Origin: Anaerolineae bacterium | Lineage (GTDB): Bacteria; Chloroflexota; Anaerolineae; CG2-30-64-16 | Assembly: GCA_040772005.1 (NCBI GenBank) | Contig: JAXGYZ010000002.1 | Span: 573,061-637,060, forward strand | Length of the DNA: 64,000 nucleotides | Direction: 5' to 3' | In this document: positions 6,313-58,656 of the stretch, piece after piece | Position numbering within the stretch: position 1 is the first letter of the stretch | Layout of the letters: every line of letters begins with the position of its first letter | Program-made: the position numbers and the translations under genes | The notes under the pieces: model-generated | The model's input: the letters and a program-made list of their open reading frames with translations, nothing else | Told to the model about the DNA's origin: nothing | Databases searched by the model: none

Positions 6313-6435
6313 ATCGCTTCACGATTGTGCGCGGGCCACATCCTTCGACTGGTGACTGTGGGCCGGCGAGGTTGAGCCGTACACCCGCTCAGGATGCTCC
6401 GCGCATCTGGATTTGCTGATAGTGCGGGGTTGAGA

Positions 6436-7923: not shown

Positions 7924-8013
7924 GATTGAAGATTGAAAATTGAAGATTGAAGATTACAGACGAGGCGGCCATGTTTTGGCAATCTTCAATCTGTAATCTT
8001 CAATCTTCAATCC
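7924..8013. repeat. GATTGAA heptamer-repeat element forming a long perfect hairpin (gattgaagattacaga...tctgtaatcttcaatc)
   Basis: Tandem GATTGAA units in both arms; begins immediately after the gdh stop codon. Related copies at 12033-12106, 42848-42877 and 34635-34690. Confidence 0.7.
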
Positions 8014-11170: not shown

Positions 11171-13135
11171 TCAGCCTGCTGCAGGGGGCGTGTGCTGGGG
11201 AGGTGCACCGTCGTGCTGATAGGCGGGCACGAGGATGCGGAAGGAGGCCTCGAGTGCGGCCGTGTCGCCGCGATAGGCGGCCTCGATCAGCCGCGCGACC
11301 TCCGGCTCCAGGAGGTCCTGCCGGCCGTTCTGCGCGACGAAAATCTTCTCGTGCCGGGTACGGCCATACTCCTCATCGGCTGCGAACAGCTCCTCGAACA
11401 GCTTCTCGCCGGGGCGCAGGCCCGTGAAGCGAATCTCGATGTCGTGCTCCGGCTCCAGGCCCGACAGCCGGATCAGGTCGCGCGCCAGGTCGACGATGCG
11501 GACGGGCTGGCCCATGTCGAGCACGAAGACCTCGCCGCCGTGGCCGAGCGCCGCGGCCTGGAGCACGAGCTGGACCGCCTCGGGGATGGTCATGAAGTAG
11601 CGGCGCACGTCGGGGTGCGTCACGGTGACGGGCCCGCCCGCGGCAATCTGGCGCTGGAAGAAGGGCACGACACTGCCGCGACTGCCGAGCACGTTGCCGA
11701 AGCGCACGGCGACGTAGCTGCAGCCGGTCTGCCGCGCGGCGGCCTCGACGAGCAGCTCCGCGATCCGCTTCGTGACGCCCATGACGTTGGTCGGGTTGAC
11801 GGCCTTATCGGTGGAGATGAGGACGAAGCGCTCGACCCCGGCAGCAATGCTGGCCTCGACCACGCGCTGCGTGCCCAAGATGTTGTTGAGCACCGCGTCG
11901 ACCGCGTTGTCTTCCATCAGCGGGACATGCTTGTGCGCGGCCGCATGGAAGACGATCTCGGGACGGTGCTCCGCAAAGACCGCGGCCAGGCGTTCGGGGA
12001 AGCGGATGTCGGCGATCACGGGTTGCAGATGCGATTGAAGATTGAAGATTGAAGATTGGAGGTCTGCGGGGTTCGTCTTCAATCTGGAATCTTCAATCTT
12101 CAATTCGTTATGGATGTCGAAGATGCTGTTTTCGCCGTGGCCGAGGAGGATGAGGCTGGCGGGGCTGCAGCGGAGAATCTGGCGGCAGAGCTCGGAGCCG
12201 ATGGAGCCGCCCGCGCCGGTGACGAGGACGCGCTTGCCGCGGAGCAGCGCGGCCACCTGGGCCGTGTCGGTCTGGATGGGGGCGCGGCGCAGGAGGTCCT
12301 CGATCTGGACATCGCGCAGTTGCTGGAGGCGGACGGCGCCGCCCAGCAGCTCGTAGATGCCCGGCACGGTGCGGGCGCGCACGCCCGCGGCCTCGCAGAT
12401 CTCCACGATATCGCGGATGGCCGCGCCGGGTGCGCTTGGCATGGCGATGATGACCTGCTCGATATGGTGTTCGCGGGCCAGGTCGGGGATGCGCTCGCGG
12501 CCGCCCAGGACGCGCACGCGCTGGAGCAGCATTCCGTGTTTGAGCGGGTCGTCGTCCACGAACCCGAGGGGCACCAGGCCGGTCTGCGGGTTCTGGCGCA
12601 GCTCCCGCAGCACCATTGCGCCCGCCTCGCCCGCACCGGCTATGAGGACATGCTGGAGCGGGCCGCCGGGAGCGCCGGCCTTGCGCGCGCGCTGTGCACC
12701 GAGCGCCCCGGCGCGCAGCGCGAAGCGTGACCCGGCAATGACCGCGAAGGTCACGAGCACGTCGATCAATGGGATGGAGCGCGGGACGCCGGGGGAGAGC
12801 AGCGCAGGGAAAATCGCCTGCGTGCCGAGGAAGAGCGCCCCCTGGGCCAGCGCACCGAGTGCCGCAGACCAGACGAGCAGCATCATCTCGTCCGGCCCCG
12901 CGTACTGCCAGTAGCGCGTGTAGAGGCCGAGCACGCTGAAGATGGGTATCTTGATGAATGGGGCCGCGATTACAAAGATCAACATCGTCCGCACGTAAGG
13001 CTGGAGCTGCGCGGTGTCCAGGCGCAGGGCGAACGCGAGCACCGCAGCCATCGGCACGAGCAGCATATCAGCTGCCAGCAGGTGCCGGTTGCGCACGCGC
13101 AGCAGGAGCTGCGTAAGGCCATATGAGTGTGTCAT
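11171..13135 (-). CDS. Membrane-anchored nucleoside-diphosphate-sugar 4,6-dehydratase/epimerase (CapD/WbpM/PglF family)
   Basis: N-terminal TM helices, then LVTGAGGSIGSEL Rossmann, then the catalytic STDKAVNPTNVMGVTKR. Start (13135) overlaps the upstream stop (ATGA). Contains an in-frame heptamer-repeat insertion. Confidence 0.8.
   Translation of the reverse strand: MTHSYGLTQLLLRVRNRHLLAADMLLVPMAAVLAFALRLDTAQLQPYVRTMLIFVIAAPFIKIPIFSVLGLYTRYWQYAGPDEMMLLVWSAALGALAQGALFLGTQAIFPALLSPGVPRSIPLIDVLVTFAVIAGSRFALRAGALGAQRARKAGAPGGPLQHVLIAGAGEAGAMVLRELRQNPQTGLVPLGFVDDDPLKHGMLLQRVRVLGGRERIPDLAREHHIEQVIIAMPSAPGAAIRDIVEICEAAGVRARTVPGIYELLGGAVRLQQLRDVQIEDLLRRAPIQTDTAQVAALLRGKRVLVTGAGGSIGSELCRQILRCSPASLILLGHGENSIFDIHNELKIEDSRLKTNPADLQSSIFNLQSHLQPVIADIRFPERLAAVFAEHRPEIVFHAAAHKHVPLMEDNAVDAVLNNILGTQRVVEASIAAGVERFVLISTDKAVNPTNVMGVTKRIAELLVEAAARQTGCSYVAVRFGNVLGSRGSVVPFFQRQIAAGGPVTVTHPDVRRYFMTIPEAVQLVLQAAALGHGGEVFVLDMGQPVRIVDLARDLIRLSGLEPEHDIEIRFTGLRPGEKLFEELFAADEEYGRTRHEKIFVAQNGRQDLLEPEVARLIEAAYRGDTAALEASFRILVPAYQHDGAPPQHTPPAAG
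12033..12106. repeat. GATTGAA heptamer-repeat hairpin element lying in-frame inside the capD-like CDS (encodes ...ELKIEDSRLKTNPADLQSSIFNLQS...)
   Basis: Same element as 7924-8013. The reading frame of the host gene is maintained across it. Confidence 0.65.
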
Positions 13136-24539: not shown

Positions 24540-25104
24540 CCGAATAGGACACTGATTGAACTGATTGGACTGATCTTCATGTTCTTTTCAGATTCGGCTT
24601 CAGGTGATTCTCGAAGATCTTGCGCACAACGCGAGGCTTGGGACCGAAGTTGACGACCAGTCCGACCTCATAGGGCGTGGCTTTCAGATAGTTCAGCAGC
24701 TGCGCCGCATGGTCCGGTGATATCTCGCTGGCAGCCTTGAGCTCCAACAACACGAGGTCGTTCACGACGAGGTCGGCAAAGTACTCACCCACGATACAAC
24801 CGTCGAAGAACACCGAGATCGGCCGCTGCTGCTGAACCTGCAGGCCATGCGCCCGGAGCCGCATGGCGAAGGCATTCTCATAGACCTTCTCCAGGAAGCC
24901 ATAGCCCAGGGCGTTGTAGACGTCGTAGAATATCTGGATTATCTGCCGGGTCAGCGCACTGTGCTTGTAAGTGGAGACCTCGTACGAACCCCGTTCCTCG
25001 TCCAGTTCGATCATGGTCACATCACTCATAAGACTGATGACGCTAACTTATCAGAATCAGATCAGGTAAATCAGCGTCATCAGTTCAATCAGCGTCCTAT
25101 TCGG
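24540..25104. mobile_element. 565-bp cassette bounded by 24-bp inverted repeats CCGAATAGGAC(A/G)CTGATTGAACTG, carrying a GxxExxY-family gene
   Basis: Left repeat at 24540-24563; right repeat at 25081-25104 is its reverse complement (23/24 identical). The interior is AT-richer than the flanking rfbA and sat. Confidence 0.5.
24577..25029 (-). CDS. GxxExxY protein (PD-(D/E)XK nuclease-like superfamily, TIGR04256-type)
   Basis: [13 protein letters not shown]... and [14 protein letters not shown] core. About 150 aa, typical of the family. Confidence 0.65.
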
Positions 25105-31343: not shown

Positions 31344-32377
31344 AGATTGTCGTTGACGCCATGGGCGGTGACCACGCGCCGGGCGTCGTGGTGGCAGGCG
31401 CGGTGGCCGAAGCGCGCGAGCGCGGCACGGCCCTGATCCTGGTAGGCATCGAGGAGCAGGTGCGCGCGGAGCTGGCGAAGCACGGCGACACGAGCGGGCT
31501 GCCCATCGAGGTGGTCCACGCTTCCGAGGTGGTCGCGATGGACGAGCACACGATGGCCGTGCGCGCGAAGCGGGACTCGTCGCTCATGGTCGGGATGCGA
31601 CTCGTCAAGGAGGGCCGAGCGGATGCCTTTGCCTCCGCGGGCAACTCCGGCGCGGTCATGGCTGCGGCGCTGTTCGCCCTGGGGCGCATCGCCGGCGTCG
31701 AGCGGCCCGCGCTGGGCAGCATCTACCCTGCCTCGCCTGAGCCATGCCTGGTCATCGACATCGGGGCCAATGCAGACTGCAAGCCGGAGTATCTCGTCCA
31801 GTTTGCGCACATGGGCCACCTGTATGCCCGGAAGATGTTCGGGCTGGCGCAGCCGAAGGTCGGCATCATCTCGAACGGCGAGGAAGCCGACAAGGGCAGC
31901 ATGCTCATCCGCGAGACCTATCCCCTGCTGAAAGCCAGCGGGCTCAACTTCGTGGGCAATGTCGAGGGCAAGGATATCGGCCGCGGCGCGGCCAATGTCG
32001 TCGTCACCGACGGGCTGACGGGCAATGTCATCGTGAAGCTGAGCGAGGGGCTGTTCTCGTTCATGCTCAAGTTTCTCAAACGGCAGTTCACCGCGGGCGT
32101 GCGCAACAAGGTGGGCCTGCTGCTGCTGCTGCCCGCGCTCGTTGCGGCGCTGCCGGGCCTGGCCGTGCTGTGGCCGACCGTGAAGGGGCTGAAGCGGCGG
32201 GTGGACTGGCGGGAGATCGGCGGCGCGCCGCTGCTCGGCGTGAACGGGGTCGTGGTCATCGGCCACGGCCGGAGCGATGCCCGCGCCATCCAGACCATGA
32301 TCCAGATGGCCGAGAAGAGCGCGCAGCAGGAGCTGGTGCAGGCCATCCGCGCTGAGTTTGCGCGCACGAGACCGTAG
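31340..32377 (+). CDS. plsX: Phosphate acyltransferase PlsX
   Basis: MKIVVDAMGGDHAPGVVV...; similarity to PlsX along the full length. Confidence 0.9.
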   Translation: MKIVVDAMGGDHAPGVVVAGAVAEARERGTALILVGIEEQVRAELAKHGDTSGLPIEVVHASEVVAMDEHTMAVRAKRDSSLMVGMRLVKEGRADAFASAGNSGAVMAAALFALGRIAGVERPALGSIYPASPEPCLVIDIGANADCKPEYLVQFAHMGHLYARKMFGLAQPKVGIISNGEEADKGSMLIRETYPLLKASGLNFVGNVEGKDIGRGAANVVVTDGLTGNVIVKLSEGLFSFMLKFLKRQFTAGVRNKVGLLLLLPALVAALPGLAVLWPTVKGLKRRVDWREIGGAPLLGVNGVVVIGHGRSDARAIQTMIQMAEKSAQQELVQAIRAEFARTRP

Positions 32378-32398
32378 CTGGTTAATTCCAGCCGATCT

Positions 32399-32580
32399 GT
32401 AATAACCTGGCTCCGGCGCATCCTGAGCGGAGAGCGTCAAGGGCAGGCGTAGCCTGATCCATGGACGCTCGCAGCCGAAGGAGCGCCGCCCGGATGCCAG
32501 CCCGGCTCCTTCGACTACGCCTCGCCCTGGGGGCAAGGCTCCGCTCAGGCTGCCTGGCTGGCCGAACTATCAAAGACTCG
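32399..32580. repeat. Family-F nested-palindrome repeat, copy 1
   Basis: Shares the catcctgagcggag...gtcgaaggagcgcc...ccggctccttcgac...ctccgctcagg architecture with 36822-36992 and 51975-52155. Confidence 0.55.
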
Positions 32581-32641
32581 CAGGTGTCTCAAACCGTAGC
32601 CGCCTGAGCCGGCAGCGGAATCCAGAGAGCTGGCAGGAGTT

Positions 32642-33928
32642 ATGACGATCACTGAGGATAAGCAGGCCCGCCGCGCGAATGGCCCAGGGGCGCGGCGGGT
32701 GGTCATCACAGGGTTGGGTGCAATCACGCCGGTCGGCCATACGGCCCCGGACACCTGGGCGGCCTTCGTGGCCGGACGCTCCGGCGTCGACCGAGTCACC
32801 AGCTTCGATGTCTCCCAGTATCCCGCGCAGATCGCGGCGGAGGTCAAGGGGTTCGACCCGACCGCATATATCCCGGCCAAGGAAGCGCGGCGCATGGCGC
32901 GCTGCAGCCAGCTTGCAGTCGTGGCGGCGCGCGAGGCCGTGGCGGATGCCGGCATCGACTGGGCGCAGGAGGACCGCGAGCGTGCGGGCGTCATCCTGGG
33001 CACGGGCATGGGCGGCACGGATATCCTCATCGAGCCGATTGGCCGCTACGGCAGAGACGGCATGGTGCGCGTCACGCCGTACGTGGCGCTGGAACACCTG
33101 GCAAACATGCCGGCGTTTCACGTGGGCATCGAGCACGGCTGCCTGGGCACCCTCTCGACCATCGTGACCGCGTGCGCGGCGGGGACGCAGGCCATCGGCG
33201 AGGGGCTGGAACTCATCCGCCGCGGGAAGACGGACATCGTGCTGGCCGGCGGCACGGAGTCGCAGGTCAACATGCTCTTCTTCACCGGCTTCAGCGCCAT
33301 GCGGGTGCTCTCCACGCGCAACGGCGACCCGCAGGCCGCGAGCCGCCCCTTCGACGCACAGCGCGACGGCTTCGTCATCGGTGAGGGCGCGGGCGTGTTC
33401 GTGCTGGAGGAGCTGGAACACGCACGGCGTCGCGGCGCGCGCATCTATGCCGAACTGCTCGGCCAGGCCGCGGGCGCGGATGCCTATCACGTCGCGCAAC
33501 CGGAAGCGACCGGCGTCGGTCCCGCGCGCACGATGCGCTGGGCGCTGGAAGACGCGGGGGTCGCGCCGGAGGCGGTGGACTACATCAACGCGCACGGCAG
33601 CGCCACGGTGCAGAATGACCTGGCAGAGACCGCGGCCATCAAACGCGTGTTCGGGGAGCACGCGTACCGGCTGGCGGTCAACAGCACCAAGAGCATGATC
33701 GGCCACTGCTTCGGCGCAGCGGGCGCAGTCGAGGGGCTGGCGACGGTCATGGCAGTCTACACGGATACGATCCACCCGACCATCAACCTCCAGGAGCCGG
33801 ACCCCGGCTGTGACCTGGATTATGTACCGAACGTCGCGCGGCAGCGCCGCGTGAATGTCGCCATTTCGAATTCTTTCGGCCTGGGCGGTCAAAACGCCTG
33901 CATCGTTCTCGGGAAATGCACGGAGTAA
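32642..33928 (+). CDS. fabF: 3-oxoacyl-[ACP] synthase II
   Basis: Active-site region ...ACAAGT... with HGSAT and NSFGLGGQNA motifs; 428 aa. Confidence 0.9.
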   Translation: MTITEDKQARRANGPGARRVVITGLGAITPVGHTAPDTWAAFVAGRSGVDRVTSFDVSQYPAQIAAEVKGFDPTAYIPAKEARRMARCSQLAVVAAREAVADAGIDWAQEDRERAGVILGTGMGGTDILIEPIGRYGRDGMVRVTPYVALEHLANMPAFHVGIEHGCLGTLSTIVTACAAGTQAIGEGLELIRRGKTDIVLAGGTESQVNMLFFTGFSAMRVLSTRNGDPQAASRPFDAQRDGFVIGEGAGVFVLEELEHARRRGARIYAELLGQAAGADAYHVAQPEATGVGPARTMRWALEDAGVAPEAVDYINAHGSATVQNDLAETAAIKRVFGEHAYRLAVNSTKSMIGHCFGAAGAVEGLATVMAVYTDTIHPTINLQEPDPGCDLDYVPNVARQRRVNVAISNSFGLGGQNACIVLGKCTE

Positions 33929-33939
33929 GGAACTGATCT

Positions 33940-34632
33940 ATGCGCGTCACCTCCAACACCAAGCTCATCAAGCGCCGCAGCAAGCTGGGGCTGATCACCA
34001 GCCTGGCCGGCATCGGCGTGCTGGCCGTCGGCATGGCCGCCTCGTTCCGGCCCCAAATCGCGTGGGTCTCGCTGATCGCCCTGGTGCTCGGCTTCATGCT
34101 GGCGCAGTTCGGCAGCTACAACCTGCGCCGGTGGGGCCGGACGCCCCGGCCGGACCAGGTCATCGAAGAGTCCATGAAGGGCTTCGACGACCGGTACCAC
34201 TTCTATGCCTGGACGCTGCCTGTGCCGTATGTGCTGCTGTCGCCCCAGGGCCTGTATACCTTCGTCACGCGCGACCAGACGGGCAAGATTTCGTCCGACG
34301 GGAAGACGTGGAAGAGCAAGTTCAGCCTCAGCCGCATGTTCATGCTTTTTGCACAGGAGGGCCTGGGCAACCCGACCGAGGAGGCCCGGCTGCACGCGGC
34401 CAAGCTGACGGAGTGGATCCGCACGAAGCTGCCGGAAGTGACGGTGAACGTCCAGCCGGCCATCGTGTTCATCGACGCGCGCGCGGAGCTGGATGTGACC
34501 GATGCGCCCGTGCCCGTGCTGGAGCCGAAGAACATCAAGAAGTGGCTGCGGGGGGGCGGCAAGGGGGACACCATCCGGCCCGCGGACCTGCGGGCGCTGG
34601 AGGCGTTGTTCGACGGGGCGTCGGCGGGGTGA
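33940..34632 (+). CDS. Membrane-anchored NERD (nuclease-related) domain-like protein
   Basis: Two N-terminal TM helices, then the YHFYAWTLPVPYVLLSPQGLYTFVTRD core resembling PF08378. Tentative. Confidence 0.45.
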   Translation: MRVTSNTKLIKRRSKLGLITSLAGIGVLAVGMAASFRPQIAWVSLIALVLGFMLAQFGSYNLRRWGRTPRPDQVIEESMKGFDDRYHFYAWTLPVPYVLLSPQGLYTFVTRDQTGKISSDGKTWKSKFSLSRMFMLFAQEGLGNPTEEARLHAAKLTEWIRTKLPEVTVNVQPAIVFIDARAELDVTDAPVPVLEPKNIKKWLRGGGKGDTIRPADLRALEALFDGASAG

Positions 34633-34634
34633 CG

Positions 34635-34690
34635 GATTTCAGATTGAAGATGTGCGCAGCGAAGCTGCGCCAAGATTGAAGATTATGGGC
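34635..34690. repeat. Degenerate GATTGAA-family element (agattgaagat-hairpin-aagattgaagatt)
   Basis: Two partial heptamer-repeat arms flank a small gcgcagc/gctgcgc hairpin. Confidence 0.4.
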
Positions 34691-34722
34691 GCCTGTCTCC
34701 ACCGGAGGCAGGCGCCGTTTTT
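34689..34722 (+). terminator. Rho-independent terminator after the NERD gene
   Basis: 12-bp GC-rich stem (gcgcctgtctcc / ggaggcaggcgc), 3-nt loop, followed by GTTTTT. Confidence 0.7.
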
Positions 34723-34769
34723 CCGCTGATCCCGAAGTCACATGGCCTTATGCGGACTCCGTACAGGCG

Positions 34770-35648
34770 TCAGGCCGCGTGTTCGGGACGGCCCGCGAGC
34801 CAGTCTTCCAGCGTTGCAACCCGCTCCGGGTGTGCGCGGCTGCGGGCCAGGAAGCCCGCGCCGTGCTGGGGCATGGGGTCCTGGTCTGTGGGCTGGTAGC
34901 GCAGGTCCACGCTCCAACGGACCTGCCCCGAGTTGTTCGCGGTCGAGGAGTGAATGAGGCGGTCGTTGAAGATGATCGCGCCGCCTGCGTTGATGGGCAG
35001 CGGGACGATCTCCGCCCGCCGCGACTCGATATGCTCCTCATCCACCTCGGTGTAACCCGTGCCGGTGTATGTCTCCTTGTGGTGGCGCAGCGCACGTGAG
35101 AGATGCGTCCGCGGGAGGACGTGCAGGCAGCCGTTCTCGTGCGTGGCGTCCACCAGCGGAATCCATATCGTGAAGACCGGGCTGGCCTTGGCATCCGGCC
35201 AGTAGCTTTTGTCCTGGTGCCATGGCACGATGCCGGCGGCTACCTTTGGCACCTTGGGCCGCACGTTGTACACAGGATTGGCGAAGATCTCCGGACCGAT
35301 CAGGCTTTCGACCACATCGAGGATCTTCGGGTTGCTCATCAGGTGGAAATAGCCGGGCAGCCGGTCGCGCCAGGAGCGGCCATAGCGCAGAAACTCCCGG
35401 TCGGTCAGCTGCTCGAACAGGCGGGCCAGCCGGGTCTCAAACCCCTCGGCCTCCAGCTTATCGGTAATCAGCCCATCGGCGTACAGATCGTCCGCGATCA
35501 TGCTCACTTTTTGCATCATCGCTTCGCGCGCGGGTGCCATGTCCGCGGCATCCAGCAGGCCGGGCAGCACGAGGTAACCCTCCCGCTCGTACAAATCCAG
35601 CTGTTCCCGCGTCAGGCCCCCGTGAGGCGCCTTGGGTCCGGTTTGCAT
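34770..35648 (-). CDS. Phytanoyl-CoA dioxygenase (PhyH) family Fe(II)/2-oxoglutarate-dependent oxygenase
   Basis: HxD...H facial triad context (WHQDKSYW...HENGCLHVLPRTH). GGAGG RBS. Confidence 0.75.
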   Translation of the reverse strand: MQTGPKAPHGGLTREQLDLYEREGYLVLPGLLDAADMAPAREAMMQKVSMIADDLYADGLITDKLEAEGFETRLARLFEQLTDREFLRYGRSWRDRLPGYFHLMSNPKILDVVESLIGPEIFANPVYNVRPKVPKVAAGIVPWHQDKSYWPDAKASPVFTIWIPLVDATHENGCLHVLPRTHLSRALRHHKETYTGTGYTEVDEEHIESRRAEIVPLPINAGGAIIFNDRLIHSSTANNSGQVRWSVDLRYQPTDQDPMPQHGAGFLARSRAHPERVATLEDWLAGRPEHAA

Positions 35649-35659
35649 GATTCCTCCGT

Positions 35660-36121
35660 TTACTTGGTCTTACCCCGTTGTTGCTGTGCTGCTTCGTAGA
35701 TGCGGATGTAGGCGTCGGGGTCGGTGCTGGCAATCGTCTGACCGATGACGTCGAGCGGCAGGTCTTCCAGCTTCTTGAAGCGCAGGCAAGACTTGCCCAT
35801 ATCGAGCTTCTTGCCCGCGTCAGCGAACCCCTGCGCCAGGGATTGCTCCGCAGCCGGGTCGCCGTAGACGCACATGAGGTAGAGCGCGTAGTGGTTCTTC
35901 TGCGCGGCCAGGCCCAGGTAGGTCAGCGGCTGCTTGTTGTAGGTCCTGGGGTAGCGTTCGAGCGGGATCTCGTAGCTGATCATCCCATAGTTCATGGTCT
36001 CCCGGTAGCCGGCGGGCAGGTTGGCGAGGATGACCGCGCGTACCCGCTCGATGACCGCGCGGCGGTCCGGCGGCAGTTCGTTCAGGTAGTCCTGTACGGT
36101 TGTGGCTTTGCTCTGCACCAT
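35660..36121 (-). CDS. DUF1801 (YdhG-like) domain protein
   Basis: ATG at 36121 preceded by GGAGAAAGA. Length about 153 aa, typical of the family. Confidence 0.55.
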   Translation of the reverse strand: MVQSKATTVQDYLNELPPDRRAVIERVRAVILANLPAGYRETMNYGMISYEIPLERYPRTYNKQPLTYLGLAAQKNHYALYLMCVYGDPAAEQSLAQGFADAGKKLDMGKSCLRFKKLEDLPLDVIGQTIASTDPDAYIRIYEAAQQQRGKTK

Positions 36122-36202
36122 GTTCTTTCTCCGATACAAACGCGCACCGCGGGATACACGGATCACGCGGAAGCCGGTTTGCTGTTTTGCCGTTGGCGGT
36201 CC

Positions 36203-36235
36203 GCCCGCATTTGAGAATGCGGGCTCCTCCTTTTT
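36203..36235 (+). terminator. Orphan intrinsic-terminator-like hairpin + T5 on the plus strand (gcccgcat-ttgaga-atgcgggc tcctccTTTTT)
   Basis: No annotated plus-strand gene ends here. Possibly the 3' end of a small RNA transcribed from 36125-36235. Confidence 0.4.
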
Positions 36236-36274
36236 CGCTCGAAAGATGCGGAACGGCCCCGGACGCGTCCGCCG

Positions 36275-36754
36275 TTACGCGGGTTTGGCGAAATCGCCTA
36301 TTGCCACATCGCCCAGCGCGGCCAGCAGGTCCGCAGTGCGCAGGATGACGGCGGTGCCGCGGACGCCCGAACCCATCGAGACTTCCTCATGTTCTAACAC
36401 GCTGCGGTCCAGCAGGACGCGCATGGGTGCAGGCAGGCCAAATGGCGCAACCGCGCCGCGCTCGTAGCCCGTCACGGCCAGCAGTTCCTCCTCCGTTGCG
36501 GTCGTCAGGCGCGACTGGCCCAGGAACGCGCGCAGCGCGGGCCAGGCCACCTGGCCGCGGCCCGCGACCAGCACCATCGCGTAGCTGTCTGCGCCGAGGC
36601 GAAACACGATGCTGCGGATGACCTGCGACGGCTGCTGGCCGCGTTCGCCGGCGGCCTGCTCGATGGTGTGCACCGGCCCCGCATGGCGGAACACGCGATG
36701 GGGGATGCCCAGTTCGGTCAACGCGCGGGAGACGGGCGGGACATTCTCAGACAT
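36275..36754 (-). CDS. ybaK: YbaK/EbsC-type aminoacyl-tRNA editing (deacylase) domain protein
   Basis: About 159 aa, with a Gly-rich editing-domain core GYERGAVAPFG. Confidence 0.6.
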   Translation of the reverse strand: MSENVPPVSRALTELGIPHRVFRHAGPVHTIEQAAGERGQQPSQVIRSIVFRLGADSYAMVLVAGRGQVAWPALRAFLGQSRLTTATEEELLAVTGYERGAVAPFGLPAPMRVLLDRSVLEHEEVSMGSGVRGTAVILRTADLLAALGDVAIGDFAKPA

Positions 36755-36821
36755 CAGATTCACCCCAAGATTACGATGGGCTCACGCCAAGACGCCAAGG
36801 ACTGTAATGCCAACCCATCTT

Positions 36822-36992
36822 TGATAACCTGGTTGCGGCGCATCCTGAGCGGAGGGCGTCAGGGCCAGGCGCAGCCGGGCCCCGACGCCCGCAGTCGAAG
36901 GAGCGCCGTCAGTCCGGCTCCTTCGACTCCGCCTCACCCTGCGGGTGAGGCTCCGCTCAGGATGCCTGGCTGGCTGAATTATCAAGGATTCG
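36822..36992. repeat. Family-F nested-palindrome repeat, copy 2
   Basis: About 85% identical to 32399-32580, including the flanking ataacctggyt...gcctggctggcygaaytatcaa segments. Confidence 0.55.
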
Positions 36993-37165
36993 TTGGAATT
37001 ACAACGCAAAGAGCGCAAAGCAATTGACTTATAAACTGACGCCAGGGTGAGACCCCCAGAGCCGAGTTGGTGCTCGGCGGTCCGACGGGCTGTGGATTCC
37101 ACCCTTGAAAGAACTAAAGTGTTTCTTTGCGTCCTTGGCGTCTTTGCGCGAGACCGCTCTTTCAA

Positions 37166-41538: not shown

Positions 41539-41596
41539 GACAGGATTGACAGGATTGACGGGATTATTCCTGTAAATCCTGTCAATCCTGTCCAGT
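41539..41596. promoter_or_regulatory. Long imperfect palindrome of CAGGATTGA units in the divergent promoter region (operator candidate)
   Basis: gacaggattgacaggattgacgggatta / ttcctgtaaatcctgtcaatcctgtc, with 17 bp of exact complementarity. Lies between the divergently transcribed 41489 and 41686 genes. Confidence 0.4.
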
Positions 41597-42877: not shown

Positions 42878-43537
42878 ATGGAAACGAACATGAGCCGGTT
42901 AGATTTGTTGGCACAGATTCGGGAGCAGGTGGGGGAGCGGCTGGAGGATGGTCGGGTGCAGGGGCGCATGACTTTCTGCATCGAGGACGGCGCGCGGCTC
43001 GGCCCGGAGGCGCGGGAGCCTGCCGGTTACCGCCACGGTTCGCACTTTCACCCGCGCGCGTTCATCTTCGACCCCGTCACGCGGTTCGAGTTCCGGCCCG
43101 ACGGCGAGCTGCTACACTTTGCGGTGGGCGGGCTGCTGTGGCGGGAGGAAGGGGACGGGCCGCGCTACTGCCTGTTCCGGCGGCGGATGCACCCGACGGG
43201 CTATTACACGCTGCCGGCGGGCCACCTGGAACTCGGTGAGACGCCGGACCTGACGCTGCGCCGCGAGGTGTACGAGGAGACCGGCCTGGCAGTGCTCTCC
43301 GCGGAGCTGCTGTTCGAGGGCGAGCTGCCGGACGACTGCCGCCGCGGGGCAGATTACCACTACTGGCACGCGTACCTGTGCCGCTGCATCGGGGAGCCGG
43401 CGCTCTGCAACGAGTCGGACATCGTCGGGTGGTACACGCGTGCAGAGATCCTGCGCGACCTGCCGCTGACCTACCCGACCGGCGTGATTTGCGAGCGGCT
43501 GTTCGGTGAGTGGCCGGGCCGCGTGCGGGGGAGATAA
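42878..43537 (+). CDS. NUDIX hydrolase
   Basis: Nudix box GHLELGETPDLTLRREVYEETGL. Start at 42878 (GGAGA RBS) or 42890. Confidence 0.65.
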   Translation: METNMSRLDLLAQIREQVGERLEDGRVQGRMTFCIEDGARLGPEAREPAGYRHGSHFHPRAFIFDPVTRFEFRPDGELLHFAVGGLLWREEGDGPRYCLFRRRMHPTGYYTLPAGHLELGETPDLTLRREVYEETGLAVLSAELLFEGELPDDCRRGADYHYWHAYLCRCIGEPALCNESDIVGWYTRAEILRDLPLTYPTGVICERLFGEWPGRVRGR

Positions 43538-43626
43538 CCACGGAAGACGCGGAGCACACGGAATGACAAAATAATCTATCTGTTCCGCGTGCTCCGCGTC
43601 TTCCGCGGTTCCTATGGAGCAATCCG

Positions 43627-49520: not shown

Positions 49521-51890
49521 TTATCCGTTGCGTCGCCGTGCCCACACCGCCAGCCCCACAATGCCCAACAGACCGATCGCTGCGGCCACCCATCCGACGC
49601 GCCACGGCGCGGGGCTGAAGGTCAATTCGACCTGGTGCTGGCCCGCGGGCACGGCCACGCCCTGAAACAGGTAGTTCGTGCGCCACGGCTCGCCCGCAGG
49701 CGCGCCGTCGATCGTCACGCGCCAGCCAGGATACCAGACCTGGCTTACGAAGATCAGTGCCGGAGCATCCGCATTGACCGAGAATGACAGGCGGTTGCGG
49801 CCTTGCCGGATGTCGCTGACCATGCCGCTGCCGCCCGCGGGGATCGCCGCGGTGGACGGCGCCTGGATGACCGCGGTCACCGTCGGGTCGAACCCGGCCG
49901 CGGTGACCGCCTGGAGCGCGGCGTCGGGCGACGGCTGGAACACGATGTCACGGACGATGAACGCGCGGGGGAGCGCCTGCCGGTTCTCGTAGACGTTCAG
50001 ATCGGGGTCGCCGTCGAAGGCCAGCGCGAACTTGCCCCAGTCCAGCTCGACATTCTTCTTCGCGATGACGTAGCGCACGTTCAGCAGATCGTAGAGCCGC
50101 GTGGAGCGCGAGCCGAGGCTGTTCCAGTAGCGCTCGAAGTCGGCCAGCACGAGCGGGTTCGCGACCCCGGCCACGTCCTCCAGCCCGTAGAGCAGCGCGG
50201 TGTCCGGCTGCCAGAGGGACTCGATCTGCGTCCGGCTGTCGATGCGGAACGGACCGGGCTGCGCCGCCAGGTAGGCCGCAATCGGCCCCTGTTCGAAGCT
50301 CTGCGAGGGGTCCTGGGTGCCGAGGTCCTGGTAAGCGGCGAGGCTGGCGACATCGAGGAAGATCAGCCCCGCAGCCAGCCAGCCGAGCGTGTTGGCGCGC
50401 GGCCAGCCGGAGCGCCACGCGGTCAGCCAAAGCCAGGACGCCGCGAGCAACCCCGCGAAGGTGATCACCGCGATGAGCGTGATGGAGATGCGGATGACGA
50501 TGGCCGGGTCGCGGTCCTGGACGAGCAGCAGCGCGAGGTAGGCCAGCGGGACTGCAACGGCCCAGGCCGCGGCGGTCGCGCGGCCCACCAGCCGCCAGGC
50601 GCGGTTGAAGACGGCTGCCGCGGGGCCGCTCAGCGGGCGGAGCAGGATGTCCAGCCCGAGCGCGGCCAGCCCGGCCAGCGCGAAGTCGGTCAGCAGGACG
50701 AACCGGGCCGGCGCGCGGAGCTGGCCGAACCCGGGCAGCAGCGTCAGCCAGCCGTGCGGGATGGCGTAGATGCCGAGCGCGAGGAGGAAGCTGCCCGCCG
50801 CAAGCGCGGCGAGCGCCCAGGTCCGCCGCTCACGGCGCAGCGCCAGCGCCAGCCCGGCCAGGATCAGCGGCAGGATGCCCAGGTAGCCGATCTCGACGCG
50901 CGGCCACGCGCCCCAGTGGAACTGCGGCCCGCGGCCGAAGAAACCGGGGATCAGCCAGCCGATCCACTGCGCGGGCGACAGGGAATAGCCCGCGGTCTCC
51001 GCATAGCTCCAATCCGCGCGGGCCGTCTCGCCCGCGAGCTGGAGCGAAGGCAGGAGGACCGGCGCGGCCAGCAGCACCGCAACGAGGAAACAGACAGCCA
51101 GCGTCAGCAGCGCGGCCGCGCCGCGCGCCTTGACGTCCGGCTCTGCGCGCGCCAGCCACACCTCGCACGCAGCATAGCAGGCCAGGGCAAGCGCGATGAA
51201 CAGCGTGGCCTGGATGTGGCCGGCGAGCGTCGCGACGGCCAGCAGCACGCCGGCGAGCGCAGCCCGGATAAGACGCCGGGTGCCCGGCAACGCTGCGCTG
51301 CCGGGCGCGAAGCCAAATGCCCAGAAGACCCAGGGCAGCCAACTGGCGACCGCGTTGAAATTGAGGTTGCCGAAGTGGGTCACGAACACATCGGAGAACA
51401 TGAAGGCCAGCGCACCCGCCAGGGCCGCAATGCGCCGCGTGCGGAGTCCGCGCGCCAGCCAGAGGTACATGCCTGCGCCCGCAAACCAGATGTGCGCGAT
51501 GCTCAACCCCTGCAGCGCGCTGTAGGGGAACGCGGGCCGGAGCAGGAAGAGCAGGAGGTTGGGCGGATAGAGGAAGCCGGCCTGGATGTCGCCCACATGG
51601 GGCGCGCCGCCGTACAGGTGCGGGTTCCACAGGGGCAGCGCGCCGTCGGCCAGCGCGGCAGCCGTGAAGCGATACGTTGGATAGAGGAAGGAGACCAGGT
51701 CACCGCCATCCGCCGGCATCCAGTTCTGACCGGCCAGGACGCGCCAGAAGAAGCCCAGCGTGGCGAGGGCCAGCACGCCCACCGCCAGCAGGTCCCGGTG
51801 CCAGGGGGTTGCCAGCCGGCCGCGGCGGTAGGCCGTCCAGACGCCTGCCAGCACCGCCAGCCAGAGCACAATCACGAAGAGCCAGCCCAT
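49521..51890 (-). CDS. YfhO-family large polytopic membrane protein (putative glycosyltransferase-like)
   Basis: 789 aa from MGWLFVIV (AAGGA RBS). Many TM helices, then a C-terminal extracytoplasmic domain. The upstream in-frame extension crosses a MITE and was rejected. Confidence 0.6.
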   Translation of the reverse strand: MGWLFVIVLWLAVLAGVWTAYRRGRLATPWHRDLLAVGVLALATLGFFWRVLAGQNWMPADGGDLVSFLYPTYRFTAAALADGALPLWNPHLYGGAPHVGDIQAGFLYPPNLLLFLLRPAFPYSALQGLSIAHIWFAGAGMYLWLARGLRTRRIAALAGALAFMFSDVFVTHFGNLNFNAVASWLPWVFWAFGFAPGSAALPGTRRLIRAALAGVLLAVATLAGHIQATLFIALALACYAACEVWLARAEPDVKARGAAALLTLAVCFLVAVLLAAPVLLPSLQLAGETARADWSYAETAGYSLSPAQWIGWLIPGFFGRGPQFHWGAWPRVEIGYLGILPLILAGLALALRRERRTWALAALAAGSFLLALGIYAIPHGWLTLLPGFGQLRAPARFVLLTDFALAGLAALGLDILLRPLSGPAAAVFNRAWRLVGRATAAAWAVAVPLAYLALLLVQDRDPAIVIRISITLIAVITFAGLLAASWLWLTAWRSGWPRANTLGWLAAGLIFLDVASLAAYQDLGTQDPSQSFEQGPIAAYLAAQPGPFRIDSRTQIESLWQPDTALLYGLEDVAGVANPLVLADFERYWNSLGSRSTRLYDLLNVRYVIAKKNVELDWGKFALAFDGDPDLNVYENRQALPRAFIVRDIVFQPSPDAALQAVTAAGFDPTVTAVIQAPSTAAIPAGGSGMVSDIRQGRNRLSFSVNADAPALIFVSQVWYPGWRVTIDGAPAGEPWRTNYLFQGVAVPAGQHQVELTFSPAPWRVGWVAAAIGLLGIVGLAVWARRRNG

Positions 51891-51974
51891 GTGCTGCTCA
51901 TCCTTTCGGGGGTCAGGGGTGCGATCTGAGCGGATGATACCACAGCCGCGGGGAAAAGCGGAATGGGTTACGGG

Positions 51975-52155
51975 CAGGAATTCCAAATGTAGGCGCACGG
52001 CGTCGGTGCAGCCGACGCACGGCATCCTGAGCGGAGGCCCGCAGGGCCGCAGTCGAAGGATCGCCACGGTGCAGGCGTGCTTCGACTACGTGCGCCGCTG
52101 CGCGGCGTCCATCCGCTCAGCATGCTTGCACCCTCGCGCACATTTGGAATTCCTG
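51975..52155. mobile_element. 181-bp MITE (family-F core) with perfect 16-bp TIRs CAGGAATTCCAAATGT and 9-bp target-site duplication GGTTACGGG (51966-51974 / 52156-52164)
   Basis: The inverted and direct repeats are exact in the sequence. No ORF inside. Sits in the yfhO promoter region. Confidence 0.65.
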
Positions 52156-52198
52156 GGTTACGGGACCGCGGTGTTTGTGAGTCCGCGGCATTTCAGGT

Positions 52199-52888
52199 AT
52201 GATGCCAGTCACTCAGATACACGAGGTTCTCCGATTGAAGCTTGATATCCGCCGCCTCTTCTGGCCGCTCATCGCACTCTGTGCAGCCCTTACGCTCATC
52301 GTGCTGGCCGTCATGCCCGCGGAAAAGACCATCGGCCAGGTCATTAAGATCGTCTATCTGCACGGCGCGCTGAGCCGCGCGGGGATGGTGGGGCTGGTGG
52401 CTGCGGGTGTGGCCGCGCTGATCTATTTCGTGGCACGGCGTCCTGCTGCAGGGGCGTGGGTGGAAGGGCTGCTCTTCAGCGGCTGGGCCTTCTGGACCGC
52501 GCATTTCATCGTCAGCATGCCGGCCACCCGGCTGACCTGGGGACCGTGGATCGCCTGGGGCGAGCCGCGCGTCACGATGACGCTGCAGGTCATCGGCGCG
52601 GGCCTGGTCATCATCGTGGTCACGCGCTTGATCGGCAGCCGGCTGTTCACGGCTGCGGCGGCGCTGCTGTTGGCCGTGGCAGTCGCCTTCATTGCCGGGC
52701 AGACGGGCGTCATCCGTCATCCGTTGGACCCCATCGGCGGCTCACCCTCGACGACGCTGCGCCTGGTGTACCTGTTATTGTTGATTCCCGTCATCGCAGC
52801 GATGTTTATGGTGGCCTGGCGACTCAGCGCGAATGTGGCCGAGCCGCTGGCGGCAGCGTCTCATAAGGAGACCGGGAGGACAGCATGA
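52199..52888 (+). CDS. Cytochrome c assembly family membrane protein (CcmC/CcsA-like, W-rich motif)
   Basis: WGPWIAWGEPRV resembles the WGxxWxWDPKE tryptophan-rich heme-handling motif. About 6 TM helices; 229 aa. Tentative. Confidence 0.45.
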   Translation: MMPVTQIHEVLRLKLDIRRLFWPLIALCAALTLIVLAVMPAEKTIGQVIKIVYLHGALSRAGMVGLVAAGVAALIYFVARRPAAGAWVEGLLFSGWAFWTAHFIVSMPATRLTWGPWIAWGEPRVTMTLQVIGAGLVIIVVTRLIGSRLFTAAAALLLAVAVAFIAGQTGVIRHPLDPIGGSPSTTLRLVYLLLLIPVIAAMFMVAWRLSANVAEPLAAASHKETGRTA

Positions 52889-57010: not shown

Positions 57011-57898
57011 TTACCCCAGCTCACCCGGTGGATTGAAGCGCGCGTCATCCAACGACCGGCGGTGGAGCGCGATGACCAGCGCCCCGACCGTTGCGCAGTC
57101 AGGTTCGTCGGGCAGGGTGGTGACGGCCTCCGCTCTCATCAGGTCGGCCTGCAACCCCGCCACCAGATCCATCAACTCAGGATAGGAGTAGCGCCCGCAC
57201 AGAATCTCCTTGAGCCAGTCTGCATCCGGCCGTCGCACCTGCACGATGCCCTCGCCCAGTATCTCGATGCCCATCCGATAGAGGCGCACGAGGTGCATGG
57301 CATGCTTGGTGTCGTAGCCGTGCTGTGCCTCACGCTCGGCGCGTTCGGGGTTTCGGTTCGCGCGCCAGGCTTGATAATCCTGCCAGTGGCGTAGCGCCGC
57401 GCGGTAGCCTCGCTCCTGCCGGGTATCGGCGAAGCGGTAGCCGCCGCGCGGGTTTTCCTTGGCCCCGAATTCCGGGGGGGTGGGCTGGTGGTCCGGCGGA
57501 TTATTGAGCCACCGGTAATGCGTCTCCATCCGCTTGAGCTGGGCCGCGGCATAGCCGGCATACGTCTGGGCCACGCGGCGGGACAGGAATGCCCGCCGGA
57601 TGTCGCGCAACGCCTGCCCATACTCATCGGTGTACAGCACATCCTCATCCGCGGCCCAGAGGATATCAAGCATGTTGGGATTGTTTGCCAGGGCGAGCGA
57701 GACGAACTTGCCGAGGCTGTAGATAACGATCTCTTCGGCGCGGTTCTCATCTTGTTCGAAGCTGTCGAGGCCCAGCAGATAGCGCGCGGGCGGGATGCAC
57801 ACGCCCCGAATGTCCACATCGCTGTGCGGGCCGGCGGTGCCGAACGCCTGGCTGCCCCACACGGCCTTGAAGATGGTGTTGCGCTCAATCCAGTTCAT
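57011..57898 (-). CDS. Pol-beta-superfamily nucleotidyltransferase (predicted nucleotidyltransferase family, PF10127/DUF4037-like)
   Basis: [20 protein letters not shown] (GS-x10-DxD). Stop 3 nt before the mnmA start. Start overlaps its paralogue (ATGA). Confidence 0.6.
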
Positions 57899-58656
57899 GC
57901 TGCAAATCCCCAGCGTACCCGCACGACGAAATCGTCGAGGGCCGCGTAGTTGGTGGGCTCATCCGGCAGCGGGCTGTTGTCGTAAGCAGCCTGTAGTTTC
58001 TCCTGCAACCCGGCCAGCGCACGATCATGTTCGTCAATCGCCAACGAGATCACGGCCTTCTCGGTCGTCTTCGCGGCCACGATGTCCAGCAGATGCGGGT
58101 AACCGTACTCCGGCGCCAGCTCCACCAGGCTTGCGTTGACCTGGCCGGTCCGTAACAGGTGGATGCCCGTCAGACTGACACGATATGCGTACAACAGCGG
58201 CTTCAACCGGCCCATCCCACACAACGCTTCCTTGCGCCACTCCTGCCATTGCGTTCGGGCATAGCCGGCATAGGCCTGGTAGACATGGCGGGCAATGCCC
58301 CCCGCTTGCGTCAGGGCGCGCAGCTCTTCTGCCCAGACGGTATCTAGTACGACCAGCGGCGAAAAAAGCTGTTCCAGGTAGTTGCCGTTCTGGCGCAGCA
58401 GAAGCGTTACGAACTTAACGAGATCGTGGCTCACGAGGTCCACCTCGATGCCATCGAGCAACCACATGCGGTTGACAGTGACGATTGTTTCGCGCAATCC
58501 GATGAACTCGTTGACCGGCAGCACATGGCATGCACGCAGGTCCACATCACTATCAGGCGAAGGGAAGCCATACAGGTGCGCACCGCTGATTGTAGCAAAC
58601 AGGAATGGGTGAGGCAGCGCGCCGGTCAGTGCGCTGCGGTAATCTGTCGGATTCAT
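57895..58656 (-). CDS. Pol-beta-superfamily nucleotidyltransferase, paralogue of the downstream gene
   Basis: ISGAHLYGFPSPDSDVDLRA (SG-x10-DxD). Shares YAGYA...W and C-terminal helical regions with 57011-57898. Confidence 0.6.
   Translation of the reverse strand: MNPTDYRSALTGALPHPFLFATISGAHLYGFPSPDSDVDLRACHVLPVNEFIGLRETIVTVNRMWLLDGIEVDLVSHDLVKFVTLLLRQNGNYLEQLFSPLVVLDTVWAEELRALTQAGGIARHVYQAYAGYARTQWQEWRKEALCGMGRLKPLLYAYRVSLTGIHLLRTGQVNASLVELAPEYGYPHLLDIVAAKTTEKAVISLAIDEHDRALAGLQEKLQAAYDNSPLPDEPTNYAALDDFVVRVRWGFAA

Follow-up and report, generated by a model that had tools for sequence, protein, structure and literature searches.

What is the 181-bp palindromic sequence that lies between two divergent genes of an uncultured member of the Anaerolineae, filamentous Chloroflexota that are common in sludge and sediment, and how did it come to be there? 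It occupies positions 51975-52155 of a 64,000-nt stretch of DNA (contig JAXGYZ010000002.1 of assembly GCA_040772005.1, positions 573,061 to 637,060 of the forward strand), which we refer to as the window; the G+C content of the window is 65%, and its protein homologues place it in uncultured Anaerolineae/Chloroflexota. An earlier interpretation made from the letters alone, here called the sequence-only reading, took the sequence for a MITE, a miniature transposable element with inverted repeats at its ends. We propose with high confidence that 51975-52155 is a non-autonomous DNA transposon of this kind. At the sequence level it shows the features by which prokaryotic MITEs are recognized (PMC10969869, PMC11602168): it is small and non-coding, has terminal inverted repeats and a duplication of fixed length, occurs in dispersed copies, is missing from an identifiable empty site, and has ends that match those of an insertion sequence (IS). 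The other copies, the IS and the empty site, which the sequence-only reading had left to be looked for, were all found, and its coordinates, 16-bp inverted repeats, 9-bp duplication, 181-bp size and 149-bp core agreed with our check of the sequence.

Ends, duplication and size of the element

The left end of the element is the 16-mer CAGGAATTCCAAATGT (51975-51990), and the right end, which reads ACATTTGGAATTCCTG on the plus strand (52140-52155), is its exact reverse complement. The terminal inverted repeats are therefore perfect over 16 nt (16/16), and they can be extended to 21 nt at 90% complementarity. With up to 3 mismatches allowed, the 16-mer occurs at these two sites only in the window, against 0.15 occurrences expected from shuffled sequence. 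The 9-mer GGTTACGGG directly abuts both ends, at 51966-51974 on the left and 52156-52164 on the right, and has no third occurrence in the window (0.24 expected from shuffles). Formally, the exact direct repeat is 11 nt long, TGGGTTACGGG; because the additional TG at the right belongs to the right inverted repeat, as its final two bases, the target-site duplication is 9 bp and not 11, a length confirmed by the 9-bp duplications around other copies. Between the inverted repeats lies a non-coding, nested-palindromic interior of 149 bp (51991-52139), and the G+C content of the whole element is 66%. In the open reading frame (ORF) listing of this region, the frames are all long and overlap one another, as is typical of GC-rich DNA, and none is confined to the element.

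Dispersed copies with the same ends

A scan of 185,579 species genomes with the pattern CAGGAATTCCAAATGTNNGCG matched 25 stretches, 23 of them in metagenome-assembled genomes (MAGs) of Anaerolineae/Chloroflexi, including 15 in the MAG R69_164; the remaining two were single matches in Bacillus and Sneathiellales, about the number expected by chance. At least 15 loci are thereby known in R69_164, and copies occur in six other Anaerolineae/Chloroflexi MAGs. Paired ends delimit 25 elements of 122-186 bp in Anaerolineae/Chloroflexia MAGs, a count that includes the window copy and its orthologue, and 16 of these 25 pairs, again with the window copy and its orthologue, are flanked by an exact duplication of at least 9 bp. 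Of these 16 duplications, four are 10 bp long and one is 11 bp long, roughly as chance extension predicts; three to four further pairs show one mismatch or a 1-nt offset, and two pairs have no duplication. More 9-bp duplications flank the metagenome copies L126, L144, L189 and L194. The 21 exact duplications that we collected from genomes and metagenomes, two of them from full-length IS copies, are all different in sequence, and no target-site consensus is evident among them. Over all copies the size ranges from 122 to 311 bp, which is within the bound of about 500-800 bp applied to MITEs, and the inverted repeats are kept in every one. Only one copy with these ends lies within the 64-kb window. 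The sequence-only reading had proposed a search for others, and the 25 paired copies and 21 distinct duplications bear it out.

As a control for noise, the 16-mer alone matched 74 viral contigs, all as singletons and with no credible paired end. Some further candidates were set aside: the additional 3-mismatch "ends" in L023 and L012 are chance matches or fragments, and of L009 and L010, considered as IS ends, one is a truncated copy and the other is a copy that the edge of its locus cuts off. Members of the family also stand head to tail, 9 nt apart in L158 (2510/2520) and L228 (3056/3066) and 10 nt apart in L017 (7954/7965), which looks like insertion of a second copy at the duplication beside one already in place.

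An insertion sequence with matching ends

A metagenome scan for the ends returned at least 120 loci, most of them chance matches; the matches listed include eight IS-type left ends, with ...ATCGGTTAGAAT... after the 16-mer. Positions 875-2510 of contig L158 form a complete IS of 1636 bp with one 447-aa ORF, whose left end is identical to the element end at 16 of 16 positions and whose right end is identical at 15 of 16; the 16-mer that bounds the 25 paired MAG copies thus also bounds an IS of 1.64 kb. Through protein homologues we found a 1659-bp IS on a long contig, L229, flanked on both sides by ACGACAGGC, and another in L230, flanked on both sides by ATGCGTGAC. The IS copies span 1.64-1.66 kb, and the 9-bp duplications of L229 and L230 are exact. 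With L158, L229 and L230, all of them metagenome contigs, there is a transposase-bearing IS with matching ends, as the sequence-only reading had proposed to look for.

Derivatives of this IS exist as well. The 515-bp copy in L173 has both ends and matches IS positions 1-170 and 1317-1384, and from this alignment it has the make-up of a classic internal-deletion derivative; the 152-bp copy in L131, a deletion derivative, matches IS positions 1-143. Between the window element and the IS, no more than 16-18 terminal bases are in common.

Two other contigs were considered as sources of the partner IS and rejected. In L163 the ends lie 2053 bp apart (151-2203) and enclose a 603-aa transposase; here a MITE is interrupted by an IS of the IS1182 family, to which the transposase belongs and which has inverted repeats of its own and a 4-bp duplication, CATT. 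In L155 the ends lie 3280 bp apart and enclose ordinary genes and no IS. The IS1182-family IS (ends TGAGTCCCCTGAAAAAAGG) sits at the same 4-bp AATG/CATT of the 16-nt repeat in L163 (151-2203) and in L231 (about 250-290). These are independent contigs, and the interrupted element is a MITE in the one and a full IS in the other; the IS1182-family IS may target these 16-nt ends.

The transposase of the partner IS

The 447-aa transposase has at least 7,997 homologues, mostly on contigs of 1.5-2.5 kb; such short contigs are expected, since a repeat breaks assemblies. In look-ups of the homologue clusters the only organism label was that of one "Nitrososphaerales archaeon" MAG. The homologues carry no precomputed Pfam domain, and one of them is named "ISNCY family transposase", that is, not classified, by NCBI. 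A search of NCBIfam, a library that we take to hold an ISAs1 model, gave no family of any kind at E ≤ 0.01. Sub-threshold Pfam matches were obtained to DDE_Tnp_1_assoc in 14 of 20 members (16.7 bits against a cut-off of 32.3), a domain that is presumably typical of ISAs1-type transposases, and to DDE_Tnp_1, which reached only E = 0.0013 and in only 3 of 20 homologues. A profile search against PDB sequences gave no match even at E = 10.

An AlphaFold model built from 19 homologues has a mean predicted local distance difference test score (pLDDT) of 82.8 and a predicted template modelling score (pTM) of 0.83. When it was compared with the PDB by Foldseek, the Tn5 transposase structures 4dm0 and 1muh were retrieved at E = 1e-9 to 3e-8 with a probability of 1.0, a TM score of about 0.5 and 406-442 aligned columns. 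The top match, 4dm0_A, has E = 1.4e-9 and TM scores of 0.50/0.48 over 406 columns, and the next matches other than Tn5 have E ≥ 0.01. From this model, the partner transposase is predicted to have a Tn5-like fold with an RNase-H-like DDE core. Tn5 and Tn10 make 9-bp duplications, in agreement with the 9-bp duplications found here.

The empty site and the history of this copy

Exact-protein look-ups with two ORFs of the window (229 and 606 aa) gave no match, so that its source genome is either missing from that index or has its genes called differently. Orthologous loci were instead fetched via YfhO homologues and then aligned. The closest relatives, L001 and L002 from two Logan samples (about 96% DNA identity to the window, and 96-100% around the locus), lack exactly 190 bp (181 + 9) and retain a single equivalent of the 9-mer: they read ...GGTTCTGCAACC followed by CATTCC..., where the window, on the same strand, reads ...GGTCCCGTAACC, the 181 bp, CCCGTAACC and then CATTCC.... 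The empty site that the sequence-only reading had anticipated in related strains thus exists, and the absence is precise. The element is also absent from the more distant L004 (about 86% identity). By contrast, L003, from the NCBI MAG Anaerolineae bacterium R69_164, carries the element at this very site; the duplication is identical, and 3 substitutions lie within the element.

The distribution of similarity around the site is uneven. From 48.7 to 54.6 kb, the identity of the window is 96-100% with the empty L001 and about 86-95% with the filled L003, whereas over 51951-52281, a patch of about 330 bp that comprises the MITE and about 120 nt, the window has only 5 differences from L003 (98.5% identity). 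Within 52160-52240 the window differs from L001 at 12 of 81 flank positions. The orthologous MITE copies of the window and L003 share 98.3% identity, compared with about 91% in the background.

The interior and related palindromic elements

The element together with its 9-bp flanks (51966-52164) is predicted to form a single long hairpin with a folding energy of -110.8 kcal/mol (z = -5.75); for the interior alone, z = -3.8. By reading of the sequence, the interior consists of a side hairpin at about 51997-52021, an outer stem formed by 52022-52037 and 52110-52125 (GCATCCTGAGCGGAGG and CATCCGCTCAGCATGC), a small hairpin at about 52036-52048, an inner stem formed by 52049-52061 and 52080-52090 (GCAGTCGAAGGAT and CTTCGACTACG), and a hairpin at 52091-52109. 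This block order recurs in 20 other copies. The shared plan of the 21 oriented copies begins with the left end, an optional hairpin, GCATCCTGAGCGGAG, a hairpin, GCAGTCGAAGGAT and a loop, and continues with YCTTCGACTRCG, a hairpin, CTCCGCTCAGNATGC, a spacer and the right end. Two long stems are kept in sequence across copies, CTGAGCGGAG/CTCCGCTCAG and GTCGAAGGA/TCCTTCGAC; the side hairpins always keep their hairpin form, yet their sequences are unrelated among subfamilies. Short palindromic interiors fold well beyond shuffles (z = -2.7 to -8.5), and the 269-311-bp classes and the IS derivative fold no better than shuffles.

The same 16-nt ends bound at least two further, unrelated interiors, one typified by L006, L011, L029, L144 and L189 and the other by L017, and they are also found on the 269-311-bp classes. 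With these included, the 16-nt ends are shared by a transposase gene and by three or more interiors of unrelated sequence. In the flank of the element, 51926-51936 reads CTGAGCGGATG, the exact complement of 52110-52120 in the core and a copy of a conserved core motif, which is present in the empty-site alleles too; this could be chance, what is left of an earlier element or a sign that certain targets are preferred.

Two other elements in the window, at 32399-32580 and 36822-36992, had been assigned to a nested-palindrome family F, of which the element at 51975-52155 was thought to be a diverged member. For the core this is borne out: the likeness is confined to conserved core blocks, with about 70% identity and E = 1e-8 to 3e-5. 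For the termini it is not, and the element falls into a separate subfamily of its own, related but different. The extents given for the two F-type elements were also too short. The first spans 214 bp (32379-32592), has the same nested-palindrome core with other termini, and is flanked by an 8-bp direct repeat, ACCGTAGC, at 32371-32378 and 32593-32600. In an alignment with the relatives L104, L106 and L107 it is missing, with a single ACCGTAGC-like site left between plsX and fabF; in L105, which was outside the alignment, the plsX-fabF spacing is equally short. The second spans 201 bp (36803-37003) and has imperfect inverted repeats of about 30 nt that start TGTAAT(G/T)CCAAC and have AATTCCAA in common with the ends of the 51975-52155 element. 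It is absent in L104, and no clear flanking duplication was seen around it, merely a repeated AC. It is inserted within an older 25-nt inverted repeat (36778-36802 and 37131-37155) that forms a compact hairpin in L104, and relative to L104 the window has about 95 nt more of unrelated extra sequence at about 37010-37110.

A hidden Markov model (HMM) built from the two F-type elements matches the cores of CAGGAATTCC-type copies, and the element at 7014-7195 of L026 is intermediate between the CAGGAATTCC-type and the F-type elements. At 6340-6397 the window contains one half of this core in degenerate form (ATCCTTCGACT...CCGCTCAGGATGC), with no recognizable termini. Further degenerate or partial cores, likewise without recognizable terminal repeats, occur in L005 (5640-5790) and in L023 (1703-1760), the latter directly beside an intact MITE. 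No Rfam family was found in the window at gathering thresholds, and none at E ≤ 1 on 51900-52250 or 32300-37100.

The IS is not the origin of the element's interior, which is a module common to other small elements of the same genome. We put forward, as a speculative and rather unlikely extension, that the core forms a structured module of DNA or RNA, complete in itself, which two or more sets of transposon ends (CAGGAATTCC... and TGTAATTCC...) have captured or exchanged and which something besides the transposase maintains. If this were true, the core could be kept, for example, by binding of a host or element protein or by a role at the RNA level, and the core and the uncurated Tn5-like IS family would make up a modular MITE system specific to Anaerolineae.

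Proposed mechanism and alternative explanations

Based on these findings, we suggest a plausible mechanism for the mobility of the element. The 16-nt ends would serve as recognition sites for a transposase supplied in trans by the 1.64-1.66-kb IS with the same ends; as far as the sequences tell, only about 16-20 terminal bases are common to the element and the IS. The 447-aa DDE transposase would excise or copy the element, cutting at its CA...TG tips, and the 3' ends would be joined to target DNA cut with a 9-bp stagger, so that repair of the gaps would yield the GGTTACGGG duplication. By analogy with Tn5, the reaction may be of the cut-and-paste type and proceed through hairpin intermediates. 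At this locus, the element would have landed in the 154-nt spacer of two divergent genes, between their putative core promoters. Such a mechanism is ordinary for a MITE that depends on a DDE transposase and involves no new principle.

The hairpin structure raises the possibility that the element is instead maintained by the host, as a palindrome of the REP/BIME kind or as the gene of a small structured RNA, and that the terminal repeats are merely the base of the hairpin. The great stability of the fold, the conservation of the stems across copies, the side hairpins that keep their form despite unrelated sequences, and the occurrence of the same core with other termini are all in keeping with this idea. 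However, it does not account for 21 different exact 9-bp duplications and a precise empty site, nor for the use of the same 16-nt ends around a transposase gene and three or more unrelated interiors; the 269-311-bp copies, moreover, fold no better than shuffled sequence, and Rfam gave no match even at E = 1. REPs are also described as units of 20-40 bp with GTAG/CGTC tags that are linked to tyrosine (RAYT) transposases and are without duplications (PMC3733652, PMC2817692). As a sole explanation, host maintenance is already contradicted, and we consider it very improbable. Another alternative, that the element is a remnant of a full IS that decayed in place and was never mobile as a small element, would gain from the deletion derivatives of 515 bp (L173) and 152 bp (L131) seen elsewhere. 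Yet the window copy has just its terminal 16-18 bases in common with the IS, and copies whose interiors are 90-94% identical occupy numerous further loci, every one of them flanked by a separate 9-bp duplication. The small element itself must therefore have transposed, and decay in place is contradicted; we regard it as the least credible of the explanations.

With the element taken as a MITE, its arrival at this particular site is a separate matter, and here several points weigh against a simple history. The closest relative is empty while a more distant one (about 91% identity) is filled, an odd distribution, and this copy may have come via homologous recombination or an assembly chimera and not by transposition here. 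The patch of about 330 bp (51951-52281) could have been imported by homologous recombination from a more distant lineage, or the metagenome assembler could have spliced it in from a strain that co-occurred; it is near-identical to the filled L003 in surroundings closer to the empty L001, and the identity of the MITE orthologues exceeds the background. On the other hand, the direction of transfer is not readable from three sequences, and the empty strain could instead have gained a MITE-free patch or have precisely excised the element between the 9-bp repeats. We judge the chances of an imported or stitched patch to be evenly balanced. Given the mosaic patch, transposition into this site in this lineage is not secure; the identity of the element as a MITE is unchanged either way. 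An assembly artefact is unlikely for the element at this locus, since it stands at the same position in a MAG that was assembled independently. Other points bear on the link to the partner IS, which was not found in the 64-kb window. The genome-scan pattern, which requires NNGCG after the 16-mer, would miss the IS ends (AGCTG), and the presence of the IS in the same genomes as the MITE copies is presumed. The transposase passes no curated Pfam or NCBIfam threshold, and its family assignment rests on predicted structure. We nevertheless infer that the MITE is mobilized in trans by this IS.

Relation to known elements

The closest parallels are MITEAba12 of Acinetobacter, with 113 bp, 16-bp inverted repeats, a 9-bp duplication and ISAba12 as proposed parent (PMC6382973), and QMITE2 of Coxiella, with direct repeats of 7-9 bp, inverted repeats of 23-29 bp, a core of 113-145 bp and a strongly folding transcript (PMC10969869). 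The element described here resembles both in being small and non-coding, with inverted repeats of about 16 nt, a 9-bp duplication and the potential for a long hairpin, and in having many copies that are polymorphic for presence or absence and a parent IS recognized by shared ends. It differs from them in its host, an uncultured member of the Anaerolineae; Chloroflexota are not mentioned in the MITE papers PMC10969869 and PMC11602168. MITEs have been described as typically AT-rich (PMC10969869), whereas this one is GC-rich. Unlike MITEAba12-type cases, its interior is modular and palindromic and has no relation to the parent IS, three or more unrelated interiors share these ends, and the parent IS has a Tn5-like transposase without a curated family model.

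Among transposases, the partner resembles those of Tn5/IS50 and the IS4 type (DDE_Tnp_1) in its fold, the 9-bp duplications, a single ORF of about 450 aa and ends of the form C...G. Unlike in Tn5, however, its sequence identity is only 12-14% and its end sequences are unrelated to the Tn5 ends; and unlike IS4-type transposases, it matches DDE_Tnp_1 weakly, in the 3 of 20 homologues only, and no NCBIfam IS4 model. ISAs1 elements have inverted repeats of 14-22 bp that start CAGGG and a 10-bp direct repeat (PMC11946415); the ends here are 16-21 nt long and start CAGGA (4 of 5 bases as in CAGGG), and the duplication is 9 bp. By end sequence, ISAs1 would be the closest described IS family, and membership in it is not supported by curated models. 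Finally, the element is like REP/BIME, ERIC, Correia/NEMIS and RUP sequences in being intergenic, in its GC-rich nested palindromes and in its modular mosaics of hairpins; it is unlike REP/BIME in being a 181-bp unit with DDE-type inverted repeats and 9-bp duplications.

What is new, then, is a MITE family and its probable parent IS documented in uncultured Anaerolineae, with a transposase family that has no curated model although it is abundant in metagenomes. Elements of this kind break short-read assemblies and make strain-level insertions and deletions, and knowledge of their ends and their 9-bp signature can aid the curation of MAGs and the tracking of strains.

Flanking genes and the insertion site

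On the left, the element is flanked by a gene for a 789-aa YfhO-family membrane protein (49521-51890, minus strand), which matches Pfam PF09586 at 46.4 bits (cut-off 28.5) in its C-terminal stretch only and whose orthologues are 96-97% identical. The sequence-only reading had placed the element within 85 nt of the start codon of this gene, and the distance to the ATG (51890, minus strand) is indeed 84 nt. On the right lies a gene for a 217-aa hydrophobic membrane protein (52235-52888, plus strand). It had been labelled ccmC-like, a label without support from our searches, in which the protein matched no Pfam or NCBIfam family at E ≤ 0.1. Its start had also been misplaced: it is a TTG at 52235, 70 nt from the duplication, in all relatives (the orthologues are called at 217 aa in L001-L004), and not the ATG at 52199.

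The spacer between the two divergent genes is 344 nt long with the element and was 154 nt long before the insertion. A consensus scan detected a promoter-like site for the 217-aa gene, TTGTGA-17-TATGAT, at 52175-52203 (plus strand), which starts 10 nt past the right duplication and whose -10 hexamer is kept in filled and empty alleles. On the yfhO side, by reading of the sequence, an extended -10-like TGGTATCAT is conserved within the 30-40 nt that separate the gene from the element, whether the allele is filled or empty. The insertion alters the spacing of the two divergent promoters: it would set two apparently intact putative core promoters 190 bp further apart and disrupt neither. Filled and empty strains co-occur in public samples. 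An effect on expression of the flanking genes, which had been suggested earlier, is conceivable; this insertion is probably near-neutral.

Other observations in the window

Two adjacent genes for RlaP-family (PF10127) nucleotidyltransferases of 295 and 253 aa lie at 57011-58656, between mnmA-like and cysteine-desulfurase-like genes. Both are missing from L001, in which their two flanking genes abut. Other small palindromic repeat families occur at 2067-2237, 7924-8012, 12034-12104, 24540-25104, 41539-41592 and 43536-43610. They include arrays of inverted ATTGAAG heptamers at two loci, GACAGGATT repeats, a near-perfect hairpin of 28 nt, and two MITE-like structures with inverted repeats of 46-47 nt that are 77 and 473 nt apart.

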